A DNA stretch of 64,000 bases, from sequence record MN342150; one strand, 5' to 3'. A model generated the notes under the pieces. It saw only the letters and a list, made by a program, of their open reading frames with translations. It ran no database searches and had not been told where the DNA came from. Both the position numbers and the translations under genes were made by a program. This document shows positions 2,825-60,412 of this stretch, piece by piece. This DNA comes from Escherichia phage vB_EcoM_3HA11. Each line of letters starts with the position of its first letter. The first letter of the stretch is position 1.

Positions 2825-4018
2825 ATGAAAGCCAAGACCTTCAGTATTCCTATCGACAACATTGGTCGTGTCAAGGAACGTCTGGCCAAACTTGAAAGAA
2901 CGGCCAAGCGCCTGAATCTCGAGTTCCCTCTTGTCGAATACAGCGAACCATACAAAACCCAGCATCGCGATTCTATCACTGGTGAAAAATTCTATCGGTG
3001 GTGGCAGGATTGTACACTCACTGGTGAAGGCATCGACCGCCCCGTTTCCTACGGCGGGTGGAGCATTATTGGACAATTCAATCACCAATATCCAAAAGTC
3101 ATCTTGAATAAATTAGCAGATGACATCCACCCTAATTTCATTCAAAGATTCGAAGCCGAAAACGTGTCTTGGTGTGAGCATTGTAATAAATCTGTGCGTC
3201 GTCATAACACATATGTTGTTCGTAACGAACAATCCGGCGCTCAAATGTTGGTCGGCAGTAGCTGTATGCACCATTACGTTCCTCATCAGAAATCGCTTGA
3301 TGCCGTGATGTCTTATTATATGTCGATACATGAAATGTTCTCACCTGATGAAGATGACCCTGAAGGCATCTATCGAGTGAACGAACCTGATTACGTTGAC
3401 ACTGAAGGTTATTTGCGGAATTGCTTTCAGGTTCTGCTGTCTGGTATGAGTATGAAGAGCGATGATTTTGGTCGAGTTCTTGGTCATATTTCTAGCGGGA
3501 CTCGTCCGGAGAAAGGTTCTGACATTGAGATATTCTATAACAAGGCTGTTAAAGCCCGTGAAGATGCTCAATCAGAAATGTACCATATGATGCTTTTCAT
3601 CGCCGCGTTGTCTGAGAACAATGATTTCAACGTTCGCCTGAAACGTATGTGTGAACCTGGATATCACCTCGTTAAGGACTCCACGACAGTTCGTTGGGGA
3701 GCAGCAAAGTATTATGATTATATCCACACCCCCCGCCAAATGCGTTCTGTATCAAATTGGGTGGGGGAAGTCGGTGAAATGTTAGAAGTGCAAGTCAAAT
3801 TCGAAGCAAGGATTTTCCTGCATTCATCTGATTATGGTGACACGTATCTGTATACTTTCAAAACCAAAGAAGGCAATACCATTACATGGAAGACTTCTTA
3901 TATGGAAACCGAATTCCTGGAAGGTGATATGATCATTCGTGGTCGCGTCAAAGAATTGACCGAATTCAAAGATGTTAAACAAACTCAGGTAACAAGGGCA
4001 AAACTGAGGAAATTATGA
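2825..4018 (+). CDS. hypothetical protein with Cys/His cluster (397 aa)
   Basis: Long ORF with CEHCNKS...SSCMHHY putative metal-binding cluster; occupies the position where T4 has primase gp61 but no TOPRIM or gp61-like N-terminal zinc ribbon recognised. Confidence 0.5.
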   Translation: MKAKTFSIPIDNIGRVKERLAKLERTAKRLNLEFPLVEYSEPYKTQHRDSITGEKFYRWWQDCTLTGEGIDRPVSYGGWSIIGQFNHQYPKVILNKLADDIHPNFIQRFEAENVSWCEHCNKSVRRHNTYVVRNEQSGAQMLVGSSCMHHYVPHQKSLDAVMSYYMSIHEMFSPDEDDPEGIYRVNEPDYVDTEGYLRNCFQVLLSGMSMKSDDFGRVLGHISSGTRPEKGSDIEIFYNKAVKAREDAQSEMYHMMLFIAALSENNDFNVRLKRMCEPGYHLVKDSTTVRWGAAKYYDYIHTPRQMRSVSNWVGEVGEMLEVQVKFEARIFLHSSDYGDTYLYTFKTKEGNTITWKTSYMETEFLEGDMIIRGRVKELTEFKDVKQTQVTRAKLRKL

Positions 4019-14885: not shown

Positions 14886-15407
14886 TTAATTCCTTACTTT
14901 GTCAGGATTAGATAATATTTGTTCGTATCCGACTTCTCCTTGATAGTCGAAAACATGCTGAAGAATCGCCATATCGTCTACCATCCGATAAACTTCAATT
15001 CCAGCGTTCATCAATTTTTTGATTCCATCCATAATACGATATGGCTCACGATAATATACTTTATCGATTTTACCGCTATCTATTATCTTTTGAGTGCAAT
15101 TAGGGCAAGGACTATGTGTCACAAACATAACCAACCCTGTGAAATCATCTGCATTTTCGGGGATACGCATTAGAGCATTTTCCTCCGCATGAACAACACA
15201 CGGGTTTGTAACAATTTGCCCGTGTTGCTCCATCTCACAAACATTCGGCATGCCAGGAGGCGTTCCGTTCCATCCGATAGCCACAGGCTGATCAGTTTCA
15301 GGGTTTACGATAACACAACCGACTTGCAGACGCCGAGCATAACTGGTTACACCATATGCTGCAGCTGATCGCATATGAGCAAACATCATACGTGGTTTGA
15401 TAGCCAT
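14886..15407 (-). CDS. cd: dCMP deaminase
   Basis: 173 aa; zinc-binding cytidine/dCMP deaminase motifs HAEENAL and PCPNC. Confidence 0.85.
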   Translation of the reverse strand: MAIKPRMMFAHMRSAAAYGVTSYARRLQVGCVIVNPETDQPVAIGWNGTPPGMPNVCEMEQHGQIVTNPCVVHAEENALMRIPENADDFTGLVMFVTHSPCPNCTQKIIDSGKIDKVYYREPYRIMDGIKKLMNAGIEVYRMVDDMAILQHVFDYQGEVGYEQILSNPDKVRN

Positions 15408-15739
15408 TATTTTATCAGAGCCTTTTCAAGTAAAAAGATCATGTCATCCTGGTCGGCGCGGCCAAAGATCTGACCGAGGGACACCATGGAATGAACCTCT
15501 TTGACAATCAGGTCTTTGCCTGTTACACCGCTGTTGTCCAATTCGAGAATTGTAGACATGCGCTCAACCATATGAGGTGGATGATTGATATAACGTTGAA
15601 GATACTTTTCACGCAACGCAATTTTTTCGATAAGATCTGACATTTCTGCATTCTCTTCTGAATACAGACGTTCTTTAGATTTCAGTTCTTCGAGGCGTTC
15701 GTACATTTCTTTTAATGAAATCATGTTTATCTCTCCCAA
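15407..15739 (-). CDS. hypothetical protein (110 aa)
   Basis: ATGA-type overlap with downstream gene; GGGAGAG RBS. Confidence 0.4.
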   Translation of the reverse strand: MGEINMISLKEMYERLEELKSKERLYSEENAEMSDLIEKIALREKYLQRYINHPPHMVERMSTILELDNSGVTGKDLIVKEVHSMVSLGQIFGRADQDDMIFLLEKALIK

Positions 15740-15786
15740 TAAATTAAGGGGAAGTATACCTTCCCCTTCTTCAATAAAATAAATTA

Positions 15787-16137
15787 TTATTCAGTACAAG
15801 CTCGACCAAGTTCAGTCAGGCGGTAGAATGTTACTTCTGATTTCGGCCAATGCTTATACTCTTCAGAGTCATCATGAACCATTGTAAACGCAGGTTCGAT
15901 CAGACCTTTAGATAATAATGATTGCCCTGAACGTGTATCCCACGGATCACCTTTTACAGAACGAAACCCACCAGCAATCGGAGGGGTATGGAATGTCCAT
16001 ACTGTCTTGCCCTTTTCATTCGTCCAAGACTTCGGATTGAAATACCAATGACAAAGGCGTCTGGCTTCACCCTTTTCAAAATTTAACATTCCTAAAAGGA
16101 CGCAGAGTTGATGTCCTGTGATTCTTGGCTTTTTCAT
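15787..16137 (-). CDS. hypothetical protein (116 aa)
   Basis: ORF in operon; no motif. Confidence 0.4.
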   Translation of the reverse strand: MKKPRITGHQLCVLLGMLNFEKGEARRLCHWYFNPKSWTNEKGKTVWTFHTPPIAGGFRSVKGDPWDTRSGQSLLSKGLIEPAFTMVHDDSEEYKHWPKSEVTFYRLTELGRACTE

Positions 16138-16466
16138 AAGATCCCCAAGTCAGTAAGGTAACGATAAGACAGGACTACAGATAGAAATCCAATTAACGCC
16201 CAAGACGACAGAATAGGCTTGCAATTTAGCGTAGTCTTTCCATTGGGTATGTTGGGACTTCCAGTAATAACAACCGAATCCGTTTCAGCTCTCAGTGTCA
16301 TGACAGAACCCATGAGAATGATTGGGCGCACATAATATCCTTCATTATTGCGCTTTACGATACATGGTGAAGAAAATCGCAGGAACGGATCACCGCTTTT
16401 ATAACCGAATAACTCGACCTTTTCTATTTCTTCGGGTACTTTCTGACCAGGAAAGAATATTTTCAT
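16134..16466 (-). CDS. hypothetical protein (110 aa)
   Basis: 4-nt overlaps with both neighbours. Confidence 0.4.
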
Positions 16467-17041
16467 AATGCAATTCCTAAATTTGTGTATAACAACTCAG
16501 CCAGGGTGACAGGACGCTTGAATTGTTCCCAACTGCAGTTCAGGTATTCGCGCTCTTCGCGAATATTTTCGTGAAGATGGCCATGGATATTATACGCCCA
16601 ACGGTCTAATTGATAAGGAACATGTGTTGTCAACACACGGCCAACAGGCGTGTCACGTTCGTACATAGCGCCGAAGGAGCTAATCCAGCCGTCCATATAC
16701 AAAGACAACAGCATCTTAAAGCTGTCGTGGTTGCCCTGTGCCACCCTGATGATAAAGTTCGGACGCCAGTCATCGGGGACGGGGCGTCGCTTAAACTCAT
16801 CAATGTTTCGCTTGGCACCCTCCCGCATCAGGCGAATGAACCCTTCAGCCCCGATGAAGCATATATCACCAGCCAGTTCAAGGACGTCCCGAGACTTCAG
16901 CCCCTGGAAGATCGTGTCGATAACCGCAGCGTCATGCGCTTCCTGTGTATCAAATCCACGCGGTTTAAAGACCTTCTTATGCCCAAGGTGAGTGTCACCA
17001 AGGTACTTTACGATTCCCGCCATTATGGTTTCCTCAGCCAT
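16463..17041 (-). CDS. calcineurin-like metallophosphoesterase
   Basis: 192 aa; phosphoesterase motifs GDTHLG, GDICF, GNHD, GHLH in canonical order. Confidence 0.7.
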
Positions 17042-17364
17042 TCTAAAATTGGTACGTTCACAAACCCTTTGTGCCAGCGGTGTGGGTTGTGGCCTCTGTT
17101 ATGATCTAGTAAGCACGTATCGGGAGGAACACTGAAGTGAATGCCTTCGATGTCATAATAATTCCCATCAATCAGGGTGTATACATGACCTTCAATCTGG
17201 CTATAATGGATCTCTGCTTGGGGATACACATGCTTCAGAACCAGAGCAACCTGATAGCACTTTCCGTTCTTCCCGATATACTCGACATCGACCTGTTGTG
17301 GGAACACGTCTTTGATAAGATTTATCAATCTCGTGATATCATTTACAACAACCGAACGTTTCAT
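17023..17364 (-). CDS. hypothetical protein (113 aa)
   Basis: ORF in operon; His-rich C-terminus. Confidence 0.4.
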
Positions 17365-17366
17365 CT

Positions 17367-18029
17367 CTATGATAACTCATGGCGGTGTCGAACACACGCA
17401 GGGCAATTACAATTCTTTTTCAAAATTGGCATTTCACACCATGTCATTAAGTCATGTATTGGGGACATGTGATGATAGAACCAAGATTTCTTGAGACTAA
17501 TCAATGGATATAAAATTTCAATAGGTCTTTCCCCGTCTCTGGTCATCATGTTGTACCCTTCAATGACTTTATTAAAAGCGGGTATCCAGTGTATTGCGTC
17601 ATCGCCGTTAACATATGCCAATATATACGTGGACGGCAAGCCCCTGCCTTTAAATTGCGTGTTTAATAACCATATCGGGGCTTGTGCTAAACAAGCGCGA
17701 AAACCACCGTCAGGGACGTTGATGCCACTGATAGGTTCTTGATGATGTGTCCAACGATACATAAGAAGTGGGGCATTTTTATTAATCCAGTTGTGAATTT
17801 TATTCCTCGCCCAATTTTCGCGTTTAGATTTGCATTTATTATTTTCGAGGTGGCAATACACAGTATGAACTGAATATCCTTTCGATAACAACCAAATCAA
17901 CATGTATGTGCTATCCACCCCACCAGACCAGAACAACGTCACTTCTTGATTATTCTCCGGCAATGGAGCATCCCCTTGAAGAACACGGTATACAAAATCA
18001 CAATCAGATATTGAGACAACAATTTCCAT
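17367..18029 (-). CDS. PP-loop ATP pyrophosphatase, QueC-like (7-cyano-7-deazaguanine synthase-like)
   Basis: 220 aa; N-terminal PP-loop LFWSGGVDST; C-terminal cysteine cluster CNCPAC resembling QueC zinc site; size matches QueC. Confidence 0.5.
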   Translation of the reverse strand: MEIVVSISDCDFVYRVLQGDAPLPENNQEVTLFWSGGVDSTYMLIWLLSKGYSVHTVYCHLENNKCKSKRENWARNKIHNWINKNAPLLMYRWTHHQEPISGINVPDGGFRACLAQAPIWLLNTQFKGRGLPSTYILAYVNGDDAIHWIPAFNKVIEGYNMMTRDGERPIEILYPLISLKKSWFYHHMSPIHDLMTWCEMPILKKNCNCPACVRHRHELS

Positions 18030-18110
18030 TAAAATATTCCTCTTAAAGAATCATTTGTTGTGCGCCATAAAGATATGATGGTGCAATGATAATACATTAT
18101 ACAAATAGAA

Positions 18111-18129
18111 AAGCCCCTTTCGGGGCTTA
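18111..18129 (-). terminator. rho-independent terminator
   Basis: Hairpin AAGCCCC-tttc-GGGGCTT; on the minus strand followed by TTCTATTTG. Confidence 0.4.
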
Positions 18130-18417
18130 TTTGTCTTCAGATTCATACAAACGCCAATTGCCGATGCTAAACCATTCCCCTACATTATTTGAATATCTGG
18201 TTGTTCGGACTCCTCCGACTTCATACGCCCATTTGAAGAATTTCCATTTGGACGATAAAGAAGGACATTCGCTTCCGGATTTCAGAGAACACGCTGTGAG
18301 CCAACGCGTAATACTGAGAGCCTGAAAAATCGGATGGATAAATGAAGAATACAATATCCAAAGCGTTATGACAACAAAAATAATGGTCGTGATCACCCCG
18401 ACAATTTGAAAGAACAT
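18127..18417 (-). CDS. small membrane protein (96 aa)
   Basis: GGAGG RBS; N-terminal transmembrane helix; hairpin terminator just downstream. Confidence 0.35.
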   Translation of the reverse strand: MFFQIVGVITTIIFVVITLWILYSSFIHPIFQALSITRWLTACSLKSGSECPSLSSKWKFFKWAYEVGGVRTTRYSNNVGEWFSIGNWRLYESEDK

Positions 18418-19126: not shown

Positions 19127-19463
19127 CAGTTTCCCCTGCTTTCTCTAAAAGGAGTTTCAAAGGATATGTCCCACAAGCGGTGGCATACTCGACTTTGAAA
19201 TATGAATTATCGTTCATGGCGAAATTTCGATGTGGGAAATATTCCCCGTCATCCAACCCGCCTAATCCCCCGCCGACGCGATATTGTTTCAACTCAACTT
19301 CGCCGCCATAACGGAGTTGGGCATATAGGCCGATAGGAGCGCGAACGTAATTCTCCAGCCATACCCAATTTCCATCGTGTAAACGTGTAGGGATAAATGC
19401 AAAACGCACCTTGGGATGAAGAACGGCTTTGGCGAGCATCTCTTCTGTTATTTCACGTTTCAT
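19119..19463 (-). CDS. hypothetical protein (114 aa)
   Basis: ORF overlapping neighbours by 4-8 nt. Confidence 0.4.
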   Translation of the reverse strand: MKREITEEMLAKAVLHPKVRFAFIPTRLHDGNWVWLENYVRAPIGLYAQLRYGGEVELKQYRVGGGLGGLDDGEYFPHRNFAMNDNSYFKVEYATACGTYPLKLLLEKAGETDV

Positions 19464-20080
19464 CCAATACCTTCCTCTTCGATAATATCTTCTTCACTAG
19501 CGACGACAGAGATTCCGTAGTCTACCATCTGGGAAAGTTCTTGTAAATCTTGTTCAAACCCGTCACCCTGTCGGATATAAAAGACGGGTACGACACGACG
19601 CCTGGTATCTTCGAAGATAGTCTCCGCGATTTTATTAATCTGGCTCACTACATGAAACAGTTTCAAACCACCGATACCACAGCCGATGGCGGGTAAACCG
19701 ACATAGACTGTTTCGTCGGTTTTTGCCTCAATGATATCGTGAACTTGTTCAAACATAATCTGAACTGAACTGATAATGGAAGGCATGCGTGCGTTAGGAC
19801 CAGGATAGAACTGAGTGTACAAATTGAATCCCCAGACACCCGTGTCATGATCAAACGCATAGGACATGTTCCCCAAACGTTGTTCCGGACCACGTTCATC
19901 TAATTGGTCGGCTCGGTAAATTTCTGGGAAATCCAATCGAACATGGTTGGCGATACCTGCGCCCATCACAGACCAACAATTTGCGCCATGAGCAAAGGCA
20001 TTGATGAGATTGAAACTCGTGGCAGCTTTCAGTAAATCGCCGTTTGTGATAACATATGTGGTCATGCGTAACGTCTCCAT
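19460..20080 (-). CDS. macro domain protein (ADP-ribose binding/hydrolase-like)
   Basis: 206 aa; LINAFAHGANCWSVMGAGIANHV and VGLPAIGCGIGGL match the macro-domain NAAN...GGG and distal glycine-rich motifs. Confidence 0.6.
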   Translation of the reverse strand: METLRMTTYVITNGDLLKAATSFNLINAFAHGANCWSVMGAGIANHVRLDFPEIYRADQLDERGPEQRLGNMSYAFDHDTGVWGFNLYTQFYPGPNARMPSIISSVQIMFEQVHDIIEAKTDETVYVGLPAIGCGIGGLKLFHVVSQINKIAETIFEDTRRRVVPVFYIRQGDGFEQDLQELSQMVDYGISVVASEEDIIEEEGIG

Positions 20081-26841: not shown

Positions 26842-27063
26842 TTAATCGTCATATTTGCCTGTCCTGAAATTCCATTTCCTGGCCTTGGATAGGTCAAGAT
26901 CTTTGAATATATTACCGAAGATCTTTTTAAACCCTGACTCTTCTTCAAGATCTTTCGGTCTCTTGACAGGTTCTTGAACCATACCGCCTTCGGGTTTCCC
27001 CACATCAGCGGTAGTGGTGGCCGGAGCAGAAGAGTCTTCGAGGTAATCCTGGAAGCTCTTCAT
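26842..27063 (-). CDS. hypothetical small protein (73 aa)
   Basis: ORF followed by hairpin terminator at 26826-26841. Confidence 0.35.
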   Translation of the reverse strand: MKSFQDYLEDSSAPATTTADVGKPEGGMVQEPVKRPKDLEEESGFKKIFGNIFKDLDLSKARKWNFRTGKYDD

Positions 27064-46443: not shown

Positions 46444-47001
46444 ATGGCAATCGAAATTATCGCTCAATCAAAATCAGGCAAGACTGTAATGTACGGCACT
46501 GAAGAAGGCCGCTGCATCATCAACTACGGCACTATCACTGGCGAGTCTCCAGAGAAAGGTGGTCGCTATCTGGTTGAGTACGGATCACGCCTCCTGATGG
46601 TAAGCAAAGTCGATGGTCGTGAAATCATGATTCCTCGTAAAGAATACTTTGACTCACGCTCTGCCGCGATGACTTTCTTCCTCTTCCAGAAACGCCACGA
46701 ACTCTTCGTTGAAGCGAAAGACGCAGGTCTGGACGACGCGACGGCTGAGCTGATTGCCGAAGGTAAAATGACTCTCGAAGCTGCTCTGGGGGACATGGAT
46801 TGCGAAGCCGAAGCACATTATATTGAATATTCCGCATATCAGAACGAATGTGAAGATGATCCGGAAGACGACGGATTCGACCCTGACCTCCACGGCGGCG
46901 AAGACGATAACACCCCTTCCTTAGAAGTTCTGATGGCTGGCGGCCAGGCCGCTTGGGAATGGCAGAACGAGAAGAACGCCTGGCTGGATTCCCGTATCTA
47001 A
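46444..47001 (+). CDS. hypothetical protein with strongly acidic C-terminus (about 185 aa)
   Basis: ATG with AAGGAA RBS inside track ORF 46357..47001; C-terminal ECEDDPEDDGFDPDLHGGEDD. Confidence 0.45.
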   Translation: MAIEIIAQSKSGKTVMYGTEEGRCIINYGTITGESPEKGGRYLVEYGSRLLMVSKVDGREIMIPRKEYFDSRSAAMTFFLFQKRHELFVEAKDAGLDDATAELIAEGKMTLEAALGDMDCEAEAHYIEYSAYQNECEDDPEDDGFDPDLHGGEDDNTPSLEVLMAGGQAAWEWQNEKNAWLDSRI

Positions 47002-47008
47002 TTGACTG

Positions 47009-47030
47009 AAGCCCCTTCGGGGGCTTACTT
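47009..47030 (+). terminator. terminator-like hairpin
   Basis: AAGCCCC-ttcg-GGGGCTT followed by ACTTTG (weak T-run). Confidence 0.35.
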
Positions 47031-47049
47031 TGAACTGAAGGACTATATC

Positions 47050-47202
47050 ATGATTTTAATCTTATGGTTTGTATTCACATTTCTGGCCATGGCCGACATC
47101 GGCAAGTATCACGTTCTCCCAAGCGACCTGACCGTCCTGCTATACGGCATAGTTTCGTTTGTGCTGGGTTCCTTGCGCGCCCATATGAGGACTATATCAT
47201 GA
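47050..47202 (+). CDS. small membrane protein (about 50 aa)
   Basis: ATG with GAAGGA RBS inside ORF 47002..47202; hydrophobic MILILWFVFTFLAMA. Confidence 0.35.
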   Translation: MILILWFVFTFLAMADIGKYHVLPSDLTVLLYGIVSFVLGSLRAHMRTIS

Positions 47203-47396
47203 GCACCCCAAAAACTCCTGTCCGTATCGCTGTTGAGCCTCTGCTGGTTGATGCTGAGAATGCTGCTGAGCAGTACGCGAACAAAATCATCAAGAACATA
47301 ATGGACGATCTAGCATCCAACGGCTGGGACGTTGAGAAGTGCGCTCCGTGGCCATCTTCGGTTGGCGTCAAGTTTGGTGATCCAGTTTACAAATGA
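47199..47396 (+). CDS. hypothetical small protein (about 65 aa)
   Basis: ATGA overlap with previous gene; GAGGA RBS; leader sequence duplicated from the preceding gene. Confidence 0.4.
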   Translation: MSTPKTPVRIAVEPLLVDAENAAEQYANKIIKNIMDDLASNGWDVEKCAPWPSSVGVKFGDPVYK

Positions 47397-47489
47397 AAGA
47401 CTCATACTGCATCGCGGCGTTTCGACGTGCTTCCTTGACAAACAGAGCATGGCGTTCAGGATCAGCTTTGACAATATCCGGCTTCCCAG

Positions 47490-47744
47490 GTGTGTAAGAA
47501 GGATTCACTGCCTGGGTCAAAGAACGGTAGAGTGCGTGTTTTGATTTCATTCGTTGGTAATCTGGAAAACAAAATTGGTGGTCACAGCGCGGCTGTACTG
47601 AATGGTTCCCATGTATGGGGGTATTCAATCCTGACCGTGACTACACCAGAGGGGATCGAGCGCTGGAAGACTCAGACGATTATCAATGTGTCCAAGCTGG
47701 GCAAACTCTTTAACCAATATCCAACCAGGAAGGTGAAGGAGTAA
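47490..47744 (+). CDS. hypothetical small protein (84 aa)
   Basis: Plus-strand ORF ending before the hairpin at about 47757-47777; preferred over the overlapping minus ORF 47368..47628. Confidence 0.3.
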   Translation: MCKKDSLPGSKNGRVRVLISFVGNLENKIGGHSAAVLNGSHVWGYSILTVTTPEGIERWKTQTIINVSKLGKLFNQYPTRKVKE

Positions 47745-47756
47745 AATTAGAACAAC

Positions 47757-47777
47757 AAAGGGGCATTAAGCCCCTTT
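47757..47777. terminator. bidirectional terminator between convergent genes
   Basis: Hairpin AAAGGGGC-attaa-GCCCCTTT with T-rich flanks on both strands. Confidence 0.45.
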
Positions 47778-47779
47778 GT

Positions 47780-48238
47780 TTATTTCCCATCCCAAAAGTC
47801 GTCTTCATCGTCTACTTCATCAAACGCAGAATCCAATTCTTCGTCAGAGTACTCTGGAAGGCGACCATTCTGTTTCAGATATTCAATCTCGTCATCTTCC
47901 AATTGAAGATCCGTTGCTATAAACAGTGCTCCGGTCTCTTCATCATGTTCAATGCTATAAGACGTATATTCAGAACCCTGAACTGTAATGATGATAGATG
48001 TTGGATCTTCTGGATCCACGTGAGCTTCAAACGGGATACCGTCAATTGGGGCGTCTTCTAAGAACGTTGCAAGGGCTACGGCAGCGCGGACAACATCCGT
48101 GCCCTGTACCGATGCATAAATTTCTTCTGCACCCGTTTCCCCGCGCTCAAAGAATTCAATCGTAGTTCCGTCTTGAACCCCAGTCCAGATAGGCATATCT
48201 GCTGGTGTATCGGCTTCAAATAATTTTGAAATTGGCAT
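47780..48238 (-). CDS. highly acidic protein (152 aa), candidate DNA mimic
   Basis: About a quarter of residues are Asp/Glu with few Lys/Arg; C-terminal DEVDDEDDFWDG; last gene of the operon before a terminator. Confidence 0.45.
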   Translation of the reverse strand: MPISKLFEADTPADMPIWTGVQDGTTIEFFERGETGAEEIYASVQGTDVVRAAVALATFLEDAPIDGIPFEAHVDPEDPTSIIITVQGSEYTSYSIEHDEETGALFIATDLQLEDDEIEYLKQNGRLPEYSDEELDSAFDEVDDEDDFWDGK

Positions 48239-48273
48239 GTTCGTTTCCTCTATGGATAAACCTTATGGGATAT

Positions 48274-48723
48274 TTAGGCTTCTCTCTTCGCCAGCCCTGG
48301 TTTAAACACGACCATTTCTTCAACGTTATTAGCGCTCATAGAGGCTATGGAATCGAATCCTTTATTGATAAGTTCCTTCACATTATCGTGAATCTTACCA
48401 GGTTCTATCCCCAACTCACGCATTTTGTTTTCCCAAACAGAAACGTTATTAGAATCTATCACCAGAGTCTTCTTGGCCTTAACACGAAATGCCATGACAA
48501 CAGGTTCACCAGATTGACGATAGCGAACGGCGTTTTCCGCGTAGATCTGCGCTTTTTCTGGATCCCCTGTCAGGTAAAATCCAGCACCCATCGTACCTGA
48601 GTCAGTCTGGCCAAATTTTTCAAAGTCAAAGACGTCGAATTCAACATTCGACCCATGATATAAAACAATATCCGTAAAATCGGGCAATGTTGATTCACGA
48701 TAGAATTCTAGGAAGGTTTTCAT
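48274..48723 (-). CDS. hypothetical protein (149 aa) with HGS motif (speculative ADP-ribosyltransferase-fold)
   Basis: LYHGSN near the N-terminus, then aromatic-rich GAGFYLTGD and a later Glu; pattern-level resemblance only. Confidence 0.4.
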   Translation of the reverse strand: MKTFLEFYRESTLPDFTDIVLYHGSNVEFDVFDFEKFGQTDSGTMGAGFYLTGDPEKAQIYAENAVRYRQSGEPVVMAFRVKAKKTLVIDSNNVSVWENKMRELGIEPGKIHDNVKELINKGFDSIASMSANNVEEMVVFKPGLAKREA

Positions 48724-48762
48724 AGATACCCCACACTTGCTGTATGGGGTATTTAGGAGGGA

Positions 48763-50037
48763 TCAATCAGGGGTAAACTCGTTCACAGGAACTTGTTCCG
48801 GCATAGACAATTCGGGGCATGCTGCCTTCATTGGCTCAATATACGGCTTGCTACCAACAATCCAGAACAGAGCGTTTTCGTTGAGCAGTTCTGGCTTATG
48901 CTGTTGGATCCAGGTCATGACCTTGCCTTCATAGCGAGGATGCAGCTCAATATCACCCCACTGATAATCCATCAGGTCATTATAGCGAACCCAATTCGTT
49001 GTATGCAAATCCCAATGGTGTACTGCAAAGCGTGGGAGCGTTATCTCCGACTCTCCCTTCTCGCGGATACCCATCAGGAGGCCAGCCAGCGAAACGCTCT
49101 TAGAGGCATGCTGAAGATCCTTCTTGCCGTACACATAATCTGGGTTGTCGTGATAGCAACGAGTGAAATCCGTTATGTGCGGAAGATTAGCTTGTTTTCC
49201 AATAATACGCAAACGGCTTTCAATAAAGTCCAGACGGTTGGGACCAATCCCGATCAGATATACATTTTTCAGATTCGGTTTCGGGTGCATTGCCAGCCCT
49301 GTCAAAATGCTGGTACAAGAATTACATGAACCAGCAGGAATGATCAGATCTGTGATATGGTCCGGAATGTTAGCAACCTGCTCGCCGCCCAGCATATGAA
49401 ATCCTGCAATCCTCTCCGGAGAATGCAACGTATGATCCAGAGTGATCCCATACTCTAGATAATATGCTTTTGGATTCTGCTGCTCAATCAATTTCTTGCA
49501 GCGCGGCTGGATAGTGCTGTTGTAACCCGAACCGACAAAGTTGAATTCGCTGCCGAACCAGGCGCTCATCTTCACCATGTCATGGTTCATACACGTGGTG
49601 GGTTTGGTAGCGCCCAGGACTGTAGTTGTCTTGCCGCCGAAATGCCGTGAGACTGCTGTCGCCATAGGGGACTGCGGACTACCAACGACAGTACCATGGA
49701 TAAGGTCTGGGGAGCCTCCGGCCTTTAAATGCTCAACCATCAGCCAGATGGCCTGACGCAATTTACTACCATTGATCCCCTGCTTACCATTCATATAACA
49801 AGACAGCGGCGCGAAGTAATCTTCACGTTTGAACCAGACCTGCTGATTAGTTTCAGGGTTGGCAACGAGTTCGCATGGGGTGTGCTTATAGAGATAGTCT
49901 TCCCAATGGATATGGTCTCTGTTAAGGGAAAGAACATTAAAGATAGTTTTGTATGGACCTTTCCCAATATGATGCATCGGGATATATGGGGAAAGCGGTT
50001 GGCTGGGAAAAGATTTTGGATCAATTGGTTCGTTCAT
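48763..50037 (-). CDS. PLP-dependent enzyme, fold type II (ACC deaminase / D-cysteine desulfhydrase-like)
   Basis: 424 aa; FKREDYF...NGSKLRQAIWL resembles the KRED...GGNKxRK PLP-lysine region of that family. Confidence 0.45.
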   Translation of the reverse strand: MNEPIDPKSFPSQPLSPYIPMHHIGKGPYKTIFNVLSLNRDHIHWEDYLYKHTPCELVANPETNQQVWFKREDYFAPLSCYMNGKQGINGSKLRQAIWLMVEHLKAGGSPDLIHGTVVGSPQSPMATAVSRHFGGKTTTVLGATKPTTCMNHDMVKMSAWFGSEFNFVGSGYNSTIQPRCKKLIEQQNPKAYYLEYGITLDHTLHSPERIAGFHMLGGEQVANIPDHITDLIIPAGSCNSCTSILTGLAMHPKPNLKNVYLIGIGPNRLDFIESRLRIIGKQANLPHITDFTRCYHDNPDYVYGKKDLQHASKSVSLAGLLMGIREKGESEITLPRFAVHHWDLHTTNWVRYNDLMDYQWGDIELHPRYEGKVMTWIQQHKPELLNENALFWIVGSKPYIEPMKAACPELSMPEQVPVNEFTPD

Positions 50038-50106
50038 TCTATTTCTCCTGTAGACATTGGCTTATCATAGCGTATCTACAGGAGTATAGAAAAGGAGAAT
50101 CTCGGG

Positions 50107-50790
50107 TTACTTGGTCAGAAAATCCATCAGGCGGCGGAAAAACGATTTGTGTGAGTCACTCACCTTCGGAGGATACTGAAGGATGGGTGGAAGTTCAGGA
50201 TCCACACCAACAGGCGCTCCCTGATCGTTCAGAACACGACTGGCTGGTGGAGTCGGTGGAGTCGGCTTCAAAGATTTGATCGCCTGATTCAGATCGGAAT
50301 TGTCCACAACACTCGCTTCTTCAGCCACAGAAACACACGGCTTGATTAAAACAGATTTCTTAGACTGCTCATACTGATGAGCGATATCTAGATATTTCTT
50401 GCGCTCAGCGTAGAAATCGACGTTCTTAACTTTACGGCGGCGAGCAGTAGAACTCTCTTCACCATAAAAGTCATATCCATTTTTGAACATCCAATTCACT
50501 GCTTGCTCAAATGAATTGAATACCATATACAGGCCGCGCCGCCCGTTGACCATATCGTCTTCGCTGGAATAACCGATGAACACCGCTTGGCCTTTCTTGT
50601 TCAGATCAAATGGGGTGCAGACGCCCGTATCATCTAGGGAACGCGGTGCGAGGTGCCCGTCTCTGTAAATGTAAGCCGGATACAAGAACTCATTCAGAGT
50701 GCGCTTGTTGCCTTTATATGTGTACAGACGAGCAAATGGAGGCAGATCACAAACAACATCATTGTAATCCCAAATTGTTACATTGCGCAT
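50107..50790 (-). CDS. hypothetical protein (227 aa)
   Basis: ORF; Pro-rich C-terminal segment TPPTPPAS. Confidence 0.4.
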   Translation of the reverse strand: MRNVTIWDYNDVVCDLPPFARLYTYKGNKRTLNEFLYPAYIYRDGHLAPRSLDDTGVCTPFDLNKKGQAVFIGYSSEDDMVNGRRGLYMVFNSFEQAVNWMFKNGYDFYGEESSTARRRKVKNVDFYAERKKYLDIAHQYEQSKKSVLIKPCVSVAEEASVVDNSDLNQAIKSLKPTPPTPPASRVLNDQGAPVGVDPELPPILQYPPKVSDSHKSFFRRLMDFLTK

Positions 50791-50861
50791 GGTGTTTCCT
50801 CAAATCAATGAAGGGGTTTATAAACGGTTAAATTTTAAACCCCTTATTGTCATTGAACAAA

Positions 50862-51380
50862 TCAAATGCTGGTCATATAGAGTGGGACAACCTGCTCGGC
50901 AATCAACACGACCTCAGTAATAGTGAAGTCACCGCCATAAGAGTACAGTTTGATTTGCGCCCCGTTTGTCGCCAGATTCCCATCCTTGTCAACACTGAAG
51001 AACGTAATGAAAGACAGGGTGTCCGGCGGCGGTACGCTAGCATCACGACTTCTTGATAACTGGTTCCCAAGAGAGCCAACAAAGTCAACAATCATGGTTC
51101 TGTTTGAAGTGGATCCAGACCATGAACCGACGATATTGACCTTCACCGGAAGAATAGAATCATAAGGAAACGCGTGAAATTTGTGATCTGATAATTTAAA
51201 GAACGGAGCCAAACCAGTAGGAGAAGAAGGGTTCGGAGTCTTCCCATCCAACACAGTTAACAAATCTATTCCAGTTGCCCCAGAAGTTAGAAGTTGTGAC
51301 AAACCGGAAAATCTGACTTCTGTTTTGATGCGATGGGTCTGAAGCATATTCCCCAAATAGGGAGATGTCAAAATGGCCAT
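50862..51380 (-). CDS. hypothetical beta-rich protein (172 aa), possibly structural
   Basis: Ser/Thr/Gly-rich beta-type composition. Confidence 0.4.
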   Translation of the reverse strand: MAILTSPYLGNMLQTHRIKTEVRFSGLSQLLTSGATGIDLLTVLDGKTPNPSSPTGLAPFFKLSDHKFHAFPYDSILPVKVNIVGSWSGSTSNRTMIVDFVGSLGNQLSRSRDASVPPPDTLSFITFFSVDKDGNLATNGAQIKLYSYGGDFTITEVVLIAEQVVPLYMTSI

Positions 51381-51389
51381 ACCCCCTCC

Positions 51390-51623
51390 TTAAGAAACGA
51401 TAACCGTCGCATCAGAATTAATTGCCTTAACCCATCCCACCGTCGGCGGGGTTAAAACGACCATATTTCCTTGATATATGATATGCGCGTTGTTACCCGT
51501 TGGAGTGCTGGGGTTATCACACAGATACACAGAACCGTGAGTCACTTGAAGAGTTTTCAAAGATGTGCCGTCTGAGACTTGCGTCCATGTACTTGCGTTT
51601 GGTGTGATCTTAGCAGTTGCCAT
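51390..51623 (-). CDS. hypothetical beta-rich protein (77 aa), possibly structural
   Basis: TAAATAG late-promoter-like motif upstream; beta-type composition. Confidence 0.4.
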   Translation of the reverse strand: MATAKITPNASTWTQVSDGTSLKTLQVTHGSVYLCDNPSTPTGNNAHIIYQGNMVVLTPPTVGWVKAINSDATVIVS

Positions 51624-60368: not shown

Positions 60369-60375
60369 CTAAATA
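60369..60375 (+). promoter_or_regulatory. late-promoter-like motif CTAAATA followed by a 9-bp 5'-UTR hairpin
   Basis: Upstream of the tailspike ATG at 60413; inverted repeat AATACCCCT/AGGGGTATT between motif and start. Confidence 0.25.
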
Positions 60376-60412
60376 CCCCTAGATGACATGAATACATTTA
60401 GGGGTATTACAA

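Follow-up and report, generated by a model that had tools for sequence, protein, structure and literature searches.

The ADP-ribosyltransferase (ART) Alt of bacteriophage T4 is a component of the prohead core; it is trimmed by the prohead protease at the site ITE-6, with the loss of six N-terminal residues, remains at low copy number inside the head until it is ejected together with the DNA, and is non-essential. The internal proteins (IPs) of the same phage are diverse anti-defence proteins, non-essential and variable between relatives, whose only common part is a 10-residue stretch, MKTYQEFIAE, known as the capsid-targeting sequence (CTS). Through it the internal proteins dock on the scaffolding core; the prohead protease (gp21) cleaves it off, and the cargo stays in the head and is then ejected. 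The present analysis concerns two adjacent genes on the minus strand of a 64,000-nucleotide stretch (the window) of Escherichia phage vB_EcoM_3HA11 (record MN342150). One of them (48274..48723) encodes a 149-residue protein with a His-Gly-Ser (HGS) motif, referred to here as the ART, and the other (47780..48238) a highly acidic protein of 152 residues; a first-pass annotation, made from the sequence alone, had presented the two as a candidate anti-defence pair. The reading favored here, with moderate confidence, is that of an Alt-like, ejected ART of the H-Y-E clade with an IP-type leader, encoded beside a conserved acidic virion protein, the two being separately promoted late genes and not an early anti-defence operon.

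Region 47000-51500 of the window shares 99.8% identity with the Salmonella phages vB_Sen_ST2, Sajous1 and Guerrero and 99.1% with Vi01, and the window is therefore a segment of a Kuttervirus (ViI-like Ackermannviridae) genome. The ART corresponds to Vi01_183, Sajous1 gp116 and LIMEstone1 ORF173, and the acidic protein to Vi01_184, Sajous1 gp115 and LIMEstone1 ORF174; the sequences of Sajous1 gp115 and gp116 are identical to those of the acidic and ART proteins of the window.

Like Alt, the ART has a late-promoter-like motif, has been detected in virions, occurs together with a T4-type protease and scaffold, and is dispensable. Unlike mature Alt, a 68-kDa enzyme of the R-S-E clade, it is a 17-kDa protein of the H-Y-E clade (ART-PolyVal), and it is thus an analogue and not a homologue of Alt. 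It also carries an IP-type 10-residue leader, and its packaging and ejection, established for Alt, would follow here by analogy. In common with the T4 proteins IPI, IPII and IPIII, several otherwise unrelated proteins of the phage share a leader of this type, MKTFLEFYRE in the ART resembling MKTYQEFIAE; in contrast, the cargo here would be an enzyme and not a small inhibitor such as IPI*, which blocks GmrSD.

The ADP-ribosyltransferase and its leader

The HGS protein is matched by two families of the ART clan, Pfam ART-PolyVal (PF18760; 43.1 bits against a curated cut-off of 31.2, with residues 19-143 aligned to model positions 7-128 of 140) and DUF3990 (PF13151; 32.7 bits, curated cut-off 32.2), and both precomputed domains are present on all 20 of the ART homologues compared. 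Its AlphaFold model is confident (predicted local distance difference test, pLDDT, 81) and contains the split beta-sheet flanked by helices of the ART fold. Its structural neighbors (scores in parentheses) include the SAIP ADP-ribosylating toxin (9.3), PARP15 (8.9), tankyrase (8.3), PARP4 (8.2), diphtheria toxin (8.2), MbcT (7.4), ParT (7.1) and AcrF11 (6.4); TreX is also among them, and DarT and Scabin are weak ones.

The first-pass annotation had likened the protein to H-Y-E ARTs on account of an LYHGS motif, an aromatic segment and a later glutamate, and each of these elements was recovered: LYHGS occupies residues 21-25, six aromatic residues fall within residues 26-52, and the glutamate is the invariant Glu136. 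Throughout the 20 homologues, H23-G24-S25, Y50, Y61 and E136 are invariant, and the triad H23, Y50 and E136 lies within predicted strands. The codons of His23-Gly24-Ser25 (48649..48657, minus strand) provide the first triad element, within the NAD-binding HGS motif. Those from Tyr50 (in GFYLT, residues 47-51) to Tyr61 (48541..48576, minus strand) contain the second, the two invariant tyrosines being arranged as Y-X10-Y, a spacing that is found in diphtheria toxin and PARP1. The codon of Glu136 (in NVEEMVVF; 48316..48318, minus strand) specifies the candidate catalytic glutamate, which begins beta-strand 133-139 of the model. In the published table of PARP motifs (HGS / Y(F/L)(A/T/S) / xxE), with which those of the ART agree, HGS is listed for PARP1, 2 and 4 and the tankyrases, and HGS/YLT for PARP16 (PMC7955679). 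The proposed ADP-ribosyltransferase assignment is therefore supported by Pfam scores, fold and conserved motifs alike. Judged from its sequence and modeled structure, the HGS protein belongs to the ART-PolyVal/DUF3990 family as a minimal mono-ADP-ribosyltransferase of the H-Y-E type that looks active. As a domain call this is not new, since the UniRef cluster is labeled 'ART-PolyVal-like domain-containing protein' and two GenBank records read 'ADP-ribose transferase'.

Stand-alone homologues of the ART occur in Ackermannviridae only, and a search of viral contigs for distant relatives returned Ackermannviridae plus one weak match. The nearest outside relatives are domains in a 3209-residue protein, beside a 729-residue lysozyme protein of a 39.9-kb podovirus, and in an open reading frame (ORF) of 709 residues. 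Their occurrence inside giant proteins fits the polyvalent/ejection-protein context of the Pfam family; unlike such multidomain PF18760 and PF13151 proteins, the ART consists of the domain alone, preceded by a targeting-type leader. There is no specific sequence relation to the ADP-ribosylating anti-CRISPR AcrIF11, which is made after infection and is not particle-borne, or to MbcT, ParT or RES. Searches of PDB chains with the alignments of the ART and of the acidic protein gave chance-level matches only.

A macrodomain partner for the ART was also sought, and the one candidate was a sub-threshold Macro-domain match (E 0.23, 11.9 bits) in a 206-residue ORF at 19460-20080 on the minus strand. 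A published core-gene table places a 'putative ADP-ribose binding protein' near this position. If the match is real, the phage would encode, besides an ADP-ribose writer, a protein that reads or erases the mark.

The first ten codons of the ART gene (48694..48723, minus strand) encode MKTFLEFYRE ahead of the ART domain. This leader is identical to the T4 CTS in six of ten positions, the single best match among the 1975 Met-started ORFs of the whole genome. M1, K2, T3 and F4 are invariant and are followed by a variable linker, the Pfam match beginning only at residue 19; in the model, residues 1-11 are disordered (pLDDT below 50). From Ser11, directly after Glu10, the sequence reads STLPDFTDIVLYHGSNVEFDVFDFEK.

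Leaders of this kind are not confined to the ART. An extended leader pattern, MK.[FYW].[EDQ][FYWH][FLIYVM].[ED], is found at exactly four gene starts, those of the ART, gp82 (MKSFQDYLED), gp215 (MKPFIEYFKE) and gp216 (MKGFPDFLKE), and in none of 100 shuffles; a related leader, MAIPSFLNFLEE, begins gp214. The proteins are otherwise unrelated, and three of the four that match the pattern were detected in virions. The leader-bearing genes lie at 26842-27063 of the window (minus strand) and, in Sajous1 locus L009, at 15142-17529, 17580-18149 and 18159-18398. The spectra recorded in the Sajous1 virion proteome numbered 196 for gp214, 32 for gp215 and 20 for gp216. In LIMEstone1, ORF080 and ORF082, both confirmed by mass spectrometry, carry related leaders. 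At the level of sequence, Ackermannviridae appear to have a class of virion cargo tagged by such leaders. T4-type machinery is encoded as well: Sajous1 gp155 is a Peptidase_S77 prohead protease (97 bits) and gp156 a T4_CASP scaffold (153.5 bits). Among the papers listed in the literature search as mentioning a capsid-targeting sequence, none concerns these phages.

Late-type motifs and detection in virions

Each of the two genes is preceded by its own late-promoter-like motif. That of the ART gene, CTAAATACCC (48747..48756, minus strand), lies 33 nt upstream of the start codon, and that of the acidic gene, CTAAATATCC (48268..48277, minus strand), lies 39 nt upstream of the ATG and overlaps the ART stop codon. 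The window contains three copies of the consensus CTAAATA(C/T)CC, where 0.29 would be expected, and two of them precede the ART and acidic genes. The shorter form CTAAATA was found at 48750-48756, 48271-48277, 56507, 60369 and 13636 of the window (minus strand) and in Sajous1 loci L007-L009, where a scan of the Sajous1 genome placed it 27-49 nt upstream of sheath, scaffold, neck, tailspike, VrlC and baseplate genes. In the LIMEstone1 record, putative late promoters are annotated at the homologous sites of both genes. The ART-gene motif is conserved in LIMEstone1 and in a remnant of the locus in Shigella phage AG3 (described below), and the acidic-gene motif in five genera (Taipeivirus, Agtrevirus, Limestonevirus, Nezavisimistyvirus and Miltonvirus). 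No sigma-70-like promoter was found ahead of the ART or the acidic gene.

CTAAATA is the apparent late promoter of the family, a variant of T4 TATAAATA. According to the CBA120 paper, the late consensus was not identified, and a late-promoter consensus 'CTAAATAcCcc' for ViI-like phages is stated in neither the AG3 nor the CBA120 paper; the promoter assignment therefore rests on our own motif scan and on the LIMEstone1 record.

An 11-bp stem-loop (48727..48752, minus strand; RNAfold -17.2 kcal/mol) directly follows the stop codon of the upstream gene and overlaps the promoter motif and the 5' untranslated region (UTR) of the ART gene, an arrangement also kept in LIMEstone1 and AG3. Some late genes have a strong hairpin immediately ahead of the start codon, and the promoter motif itself makes up one of its arms (ATACCCC...GGGGTAT). 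Such a hairpin precedes the gene of a 1193-residue tail protein (60371-60407, plus strand; -19.1 kcal/mol), and in Erwinia phage Bue1 and Serratia phage Kevin the acidic gene is preceded by the same arrangement. The promoter-arm hairpin may be an element of 5' UTR stability or of translation.

The upstream gene (48763..50037, minus strand) encodes a pyridoxal phosphate (PLP)-dependent decarboxylase, and the first-pass annotation had placed both genes at the end of an operon beginning with this enzyme. The arrangement holds in that the PLP gene is followed downstream by the two genes in tandem and then by a strong intrinsic terminator (47754..47780, minus strand; 11-bp stem and T-rich tail), which closes the transcription unit after the acidic gene. 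The description is at best incomplete, however, since each gene has a late-promoter-like motif of its own. The terminator is bidirectional, being shared with a convergent gene (47490-47744), and is annotated at the equivalent place in the LIMEstone1 and AG3 records.

Both products have been found in virions, according to mass spectrometry data published in two independent studies. LIMEstone1 ORF173 and ORF174 were listed as 'confirmed structural proteins' (PMC3296691), and in CsCl-purified Sajous1 virions the acidic protein gp115 was represented by 31 spectra and the ART gp116 by 10 (PMC10892097). The ART thus shares with the T4-type internal proteins its presence in purified virions, in two genera. 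Given the late-promoter-like motifs and the occurrence of both products in purified virions, neither gene looks like one of the early anti-defence type. An anti-defence role, delivered by ejection, is possible.

The acidic protein: mimic, partner or independent virion protein

The description of the second protein as about a quarter Asp/Glu with few basic residues was accurate: 41 of its 152 residues (27%) are Asp or Glu and six are Lys or Arg. Its pI is 4.05 and its net charge -35, and none of the other window ORFs of at least 120 residues (63 in all) is as acidic. In the alignment, 35 columns are at least 80% acidic versus two that are basic, and homologues at 40-45% identity still contain 36-43 Asp/Glu and six Lys/Arg; as judged from these sequences, selection maintains the extreme negative charge. 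Within the family the gene belongs to the strongly conserved core, with 81% mean column identity and occurrence in 277 phage records (Ackermannviridae). No family was matched in Pfam, NCBIfam or PADLOC, and phrog_3852, the one PHROG matched strongly, is without known function. When 1.84 billion representatives were searched exhaustively with a profile, seven clusters alone came back, all of about 150 residues or fragments, and neither a larger family nor a domain context became apparent.

The distant full-length homologues retain an N-terminal S-[K/T]-L-F, with L-F-E throughout except in Serratia phage Kevin (L-K-E), and a core motif G-A-E-E-[ILV]-Y that has diverged in the most distant; near the C-terminus, four of the five keep D(D/E)DFW and the fifth has DDLW. 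The codons of Leu6-Phe7-Glu8 (48215..48223, minus strand) encode a conserved L-x-E, invariant in the alignment of the protein and retained by three distant full-length homologues, that could be a prohead-protease site, although the motif alone is weak evidence; from Ala9, directly after it, the sequence reads ADTPADMPIWTGVQDGTTIEFFER. The acidic C-terminal tail (residues 126-152; 47783..47863, minus strand) has 13 Asp/Glu in 27 residues and includes the DDFW motif, in which D144, D147, F148 and W149 are invariant; residues 131-152 are predicted to be disordered (pLDDT below 50), whereas the core of the model is a compact alpha/beta domain. In the Vi01_184 record (protein P0023), residues 41-63 (MHRYRARMCPRCR...), aligned to window 48040-48120, are unrelated and match an alternative frame of the same DNA. 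This segment is probably a double frameshift in the record, due to sequencing error, and not a real divergence.

The alternative closest to the original proposal is that the acidic protein is a DNA mimic of the Ocr/ArdA/Arn type and that it and the ART, both expressed from the PLP operon, make up an anti-defence pair. Known mimics are strongly negative in net charge, and the acidic protein indeed has this property, in extreme and conserved form; a genuine ART also adjoins it. Delivery in the virion would moreover place both proteins in the cell at DNA entry, and the T4 internal proteins provide a precedent for anti-defence proteins that arrive in this way. However, charge and small size are all that the protein shares with Ocr, ArdA and Arn: it has no sequence or fold relation to these or any other known mimic, and the structural comparison found no known mimic fold that it resembles. 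Its predicted compact core and disordered tail do not evidently form an elongated DNA-like surface. It differs from Ocr, ArdA and Arn, too, in having a late-type motif, so that it would not be the first protein expressed, in being virion-associated, and in being encoded by a strongly conserved core gene, unlike the typically variable anti-defence genes; this gene is, furthermore, uncoupled from the ART gene. Charge is the sole tie to DNA mimicry, which is unsupported but, known mimics being structurally diverse, not refuted. As an account of both genes, we consider it unlikely. Distinctly unlikely, in our estimation, is a more elaborate scheme: by way of a T4-like N-terminal leader, Ackermannviridae would load unrelated cargo proteins into the head (among them the ART, gp82, gp214, gp215 and gp216); at DNA entry, the ART, once ejected, would disable a host immune protein by ADP-ribosylating it; and the acidic protein, co-ejected as a decoy of new fold that mimics DNA or binds basic proteins, would shield the amine-hypermodified genome.

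A second type of partnership would be that of toxin and immunity protein, or of cargo and chaperone, with the acidic protein silencing the ART in the producer cell or capsid or escorting it into the particle. Directly downstream of the ART gene comes the acidic gene, the usual order for a toxin and its immunity gene; both proteins are found in virions; and the structural neighbors MbcT, ParT and TreX have cognate antitoxin or immunity proteins. The distribution of the two genes is nevertheless inconsistent with strict co-occurrence. The acidic gene is present in 277 records versus 226 for the ART gene and extends to genera without a detectable ART. In Taipeivirus KpS110 it directly follows the PLP gene, in Bue1 and Kevin a Vi01_181-like gene is directly upstream of it, and no ART was detected in any of these three phages.

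The most informative case is that of Shigella phage AG3, in which the 145-nt gap between the PLP and acidic genes (3856-4000) is the remnant of an ART deletion. About 400 nt were lost, and the remnant keeps the ART promoter, the first ~20 nt of the gene (with a 1-nt deletion) and the last ~40 nt. In spite of this loss, the acidic protein of AG3 differs from that of LIMEstone1 in only three of 152 residues, and it is therefore not a dedicated partner of the ART. On the evidence of these genomes, the ART gene is a dispensable accessory gene that has been lost repeatedly, and the acidic protein has an ART-independent function under strong constraint. Together, the ART losses and the constrained acidic protein argue against a dedicated toxin-immunity or chaperone pair; in addition, the spectral count of the acidic protein was approximately three times that of the ART. 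Such a pairing was rejected as improbable on the record counts and the AG3 remnant, and the functional pair claimed in the first-pass annotation is weakened accordingly.

Proposed delivery with the virion, and the wider locus

Several observations weigh against ejection of an IP-type ART beside an acidic virion protein. The acidic protein does not carry the CTS-like leader. In the Kuttervirus ART, the residue three before Glu10, the putative cleavage site, is a Tyr and not the Leu or Ile of the T4 Alt sites ITE and LTE, which also sets it apart from the T4 internal proteins; a canonical LxE does precede the cleavage-site Glu in ARTs of other genera. The extended leader pattern was derived from the ART leader and was defined post hoc, with its matches known, and the leader-bearing gp214-216 could be tail proteins. 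The head location, trimming, ejection and target of the ART are, for their part, steps that we infer. Finally, the LIMEstone1 detection amounted to one peptide per protein, and a few non-structural proteins (rIIB, ligase and PhoH) were also seen in that preparation (PMC3296691).

This last point would also accord with the view that neither product is a true virion component, the mass spectrometry having registered carry-over of abundant late cytoplasmic proteins and the ART acting late in the producing cell. The authors of the Sajous1 study likewise warned that low counts may be contaminants (PMC10892097). Against carry-over, the two proteins were recovered in two independent studies and two genera. 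Their 31 and 10 spectra in Sajous1 are comparable to those of the neck (33), baseplate tube (24) and tail needle knob (16) and exceed those of most replication proteins (listed with 1-5), although the RegB endonuclease (31) and a ParB-domain protein (11) scored as high (PMC10892097). Moreover, the ART bears a CTS-like leader, and a host-modifying enzyme made only late makes most sense if packaged, as is T4 Alt. Carry-over thus appears an unlikely explanation.

For the favored reading, of an ejected ART beside an independent acidic virion protein, the following course of events can be proposed. The ART would be made late and dock on the T4-type scaffolding core, where the Peptidase_S77 prohead protease would trim it around Glu10. 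It would then remain with the DNA inside the head until ejection into the next host, where, ahead of any phage gene expression, it would ADP-ribosylate a host target at the expense of NAD+. This modification could be a means of host takeover, the T4 Alt strategy, or of inactivating a defence protein, the AcrIF11 strategy. The acidic protein would be an older, family-wide virion protein that works independently of the ART; it could be internal or ejected, and possibly trimmed at LFE-8.

ViI-like phages (Kuttervirus and relatives) are widely used in the biocontrol and detection of Salmonella and E. coli O157, and a 2024 review of the family mentions neither ADP-ribosylation nor anti-defence nor internal proteins. 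Ejection of the ART would mean that these phages bring with them a ready-made enzyme for modifying the host, which would act before any transcription, as T4 Alt does, in an H-Y-E form of 17 kDa. It would then be a compact system, easy to handle, in which to study ejected effectors, and might help to determine host range where NAD-linked or other defences are present. A simple, testable rule for spotting packaged cargo in the family would come from the shared leader, which could perhaps also serve to load foreign proteins into these capsids. The acidic protein, in turn, is a conserved and abundant virion component with no known relatives outside its own small family and no assigned function.

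In gene order, the locus begins with the tail needle knob gene (50862-51380, minus strand), followed by a homologue of Vi01_181 (50107-50790, minus strand) and by the PLP gene. The latter corresponds to ViI gp226 (YP_004327553 / Vi01_182), the purified product of which decarboxylates O-serinyl-thymidine to 5-NeOmdU (PMC8989533). A role of the ART in DNA chemistry together with this decarboxylase, whether DNA ADP-ribosylation or thymidine hypermodification, would suit its position next to gp226 and the presence of the DNA-modifying DarT and Scabin among its weak structural neighbors, but it is very improbable and was set aside, given that five ViI genes, with neither the ART nor the acidic gene among them, suffice for the 5-NeOmdU modification (PMC5889632), that AG3 and many Taipeiviruses keep the PLP gene without an ART, and that the promoter class differs from that expected of a replication-phase enzyme.

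The Vi01_181 homologue shows a weak, sub-threshold match to NDUS4 (21.4 bits versus 31.9), and this explains why some records bear the questionable label 'ETC complex I subunit'. In the records of Efm 3-10 ('Enterococcus phage') and Pa-sanjiao ('Pseudomonas phage'), the ART and acidic genes are 96-98% identical to those of Salmonella Kutterviruses, and these two records are probably mislabeled or contaminated.

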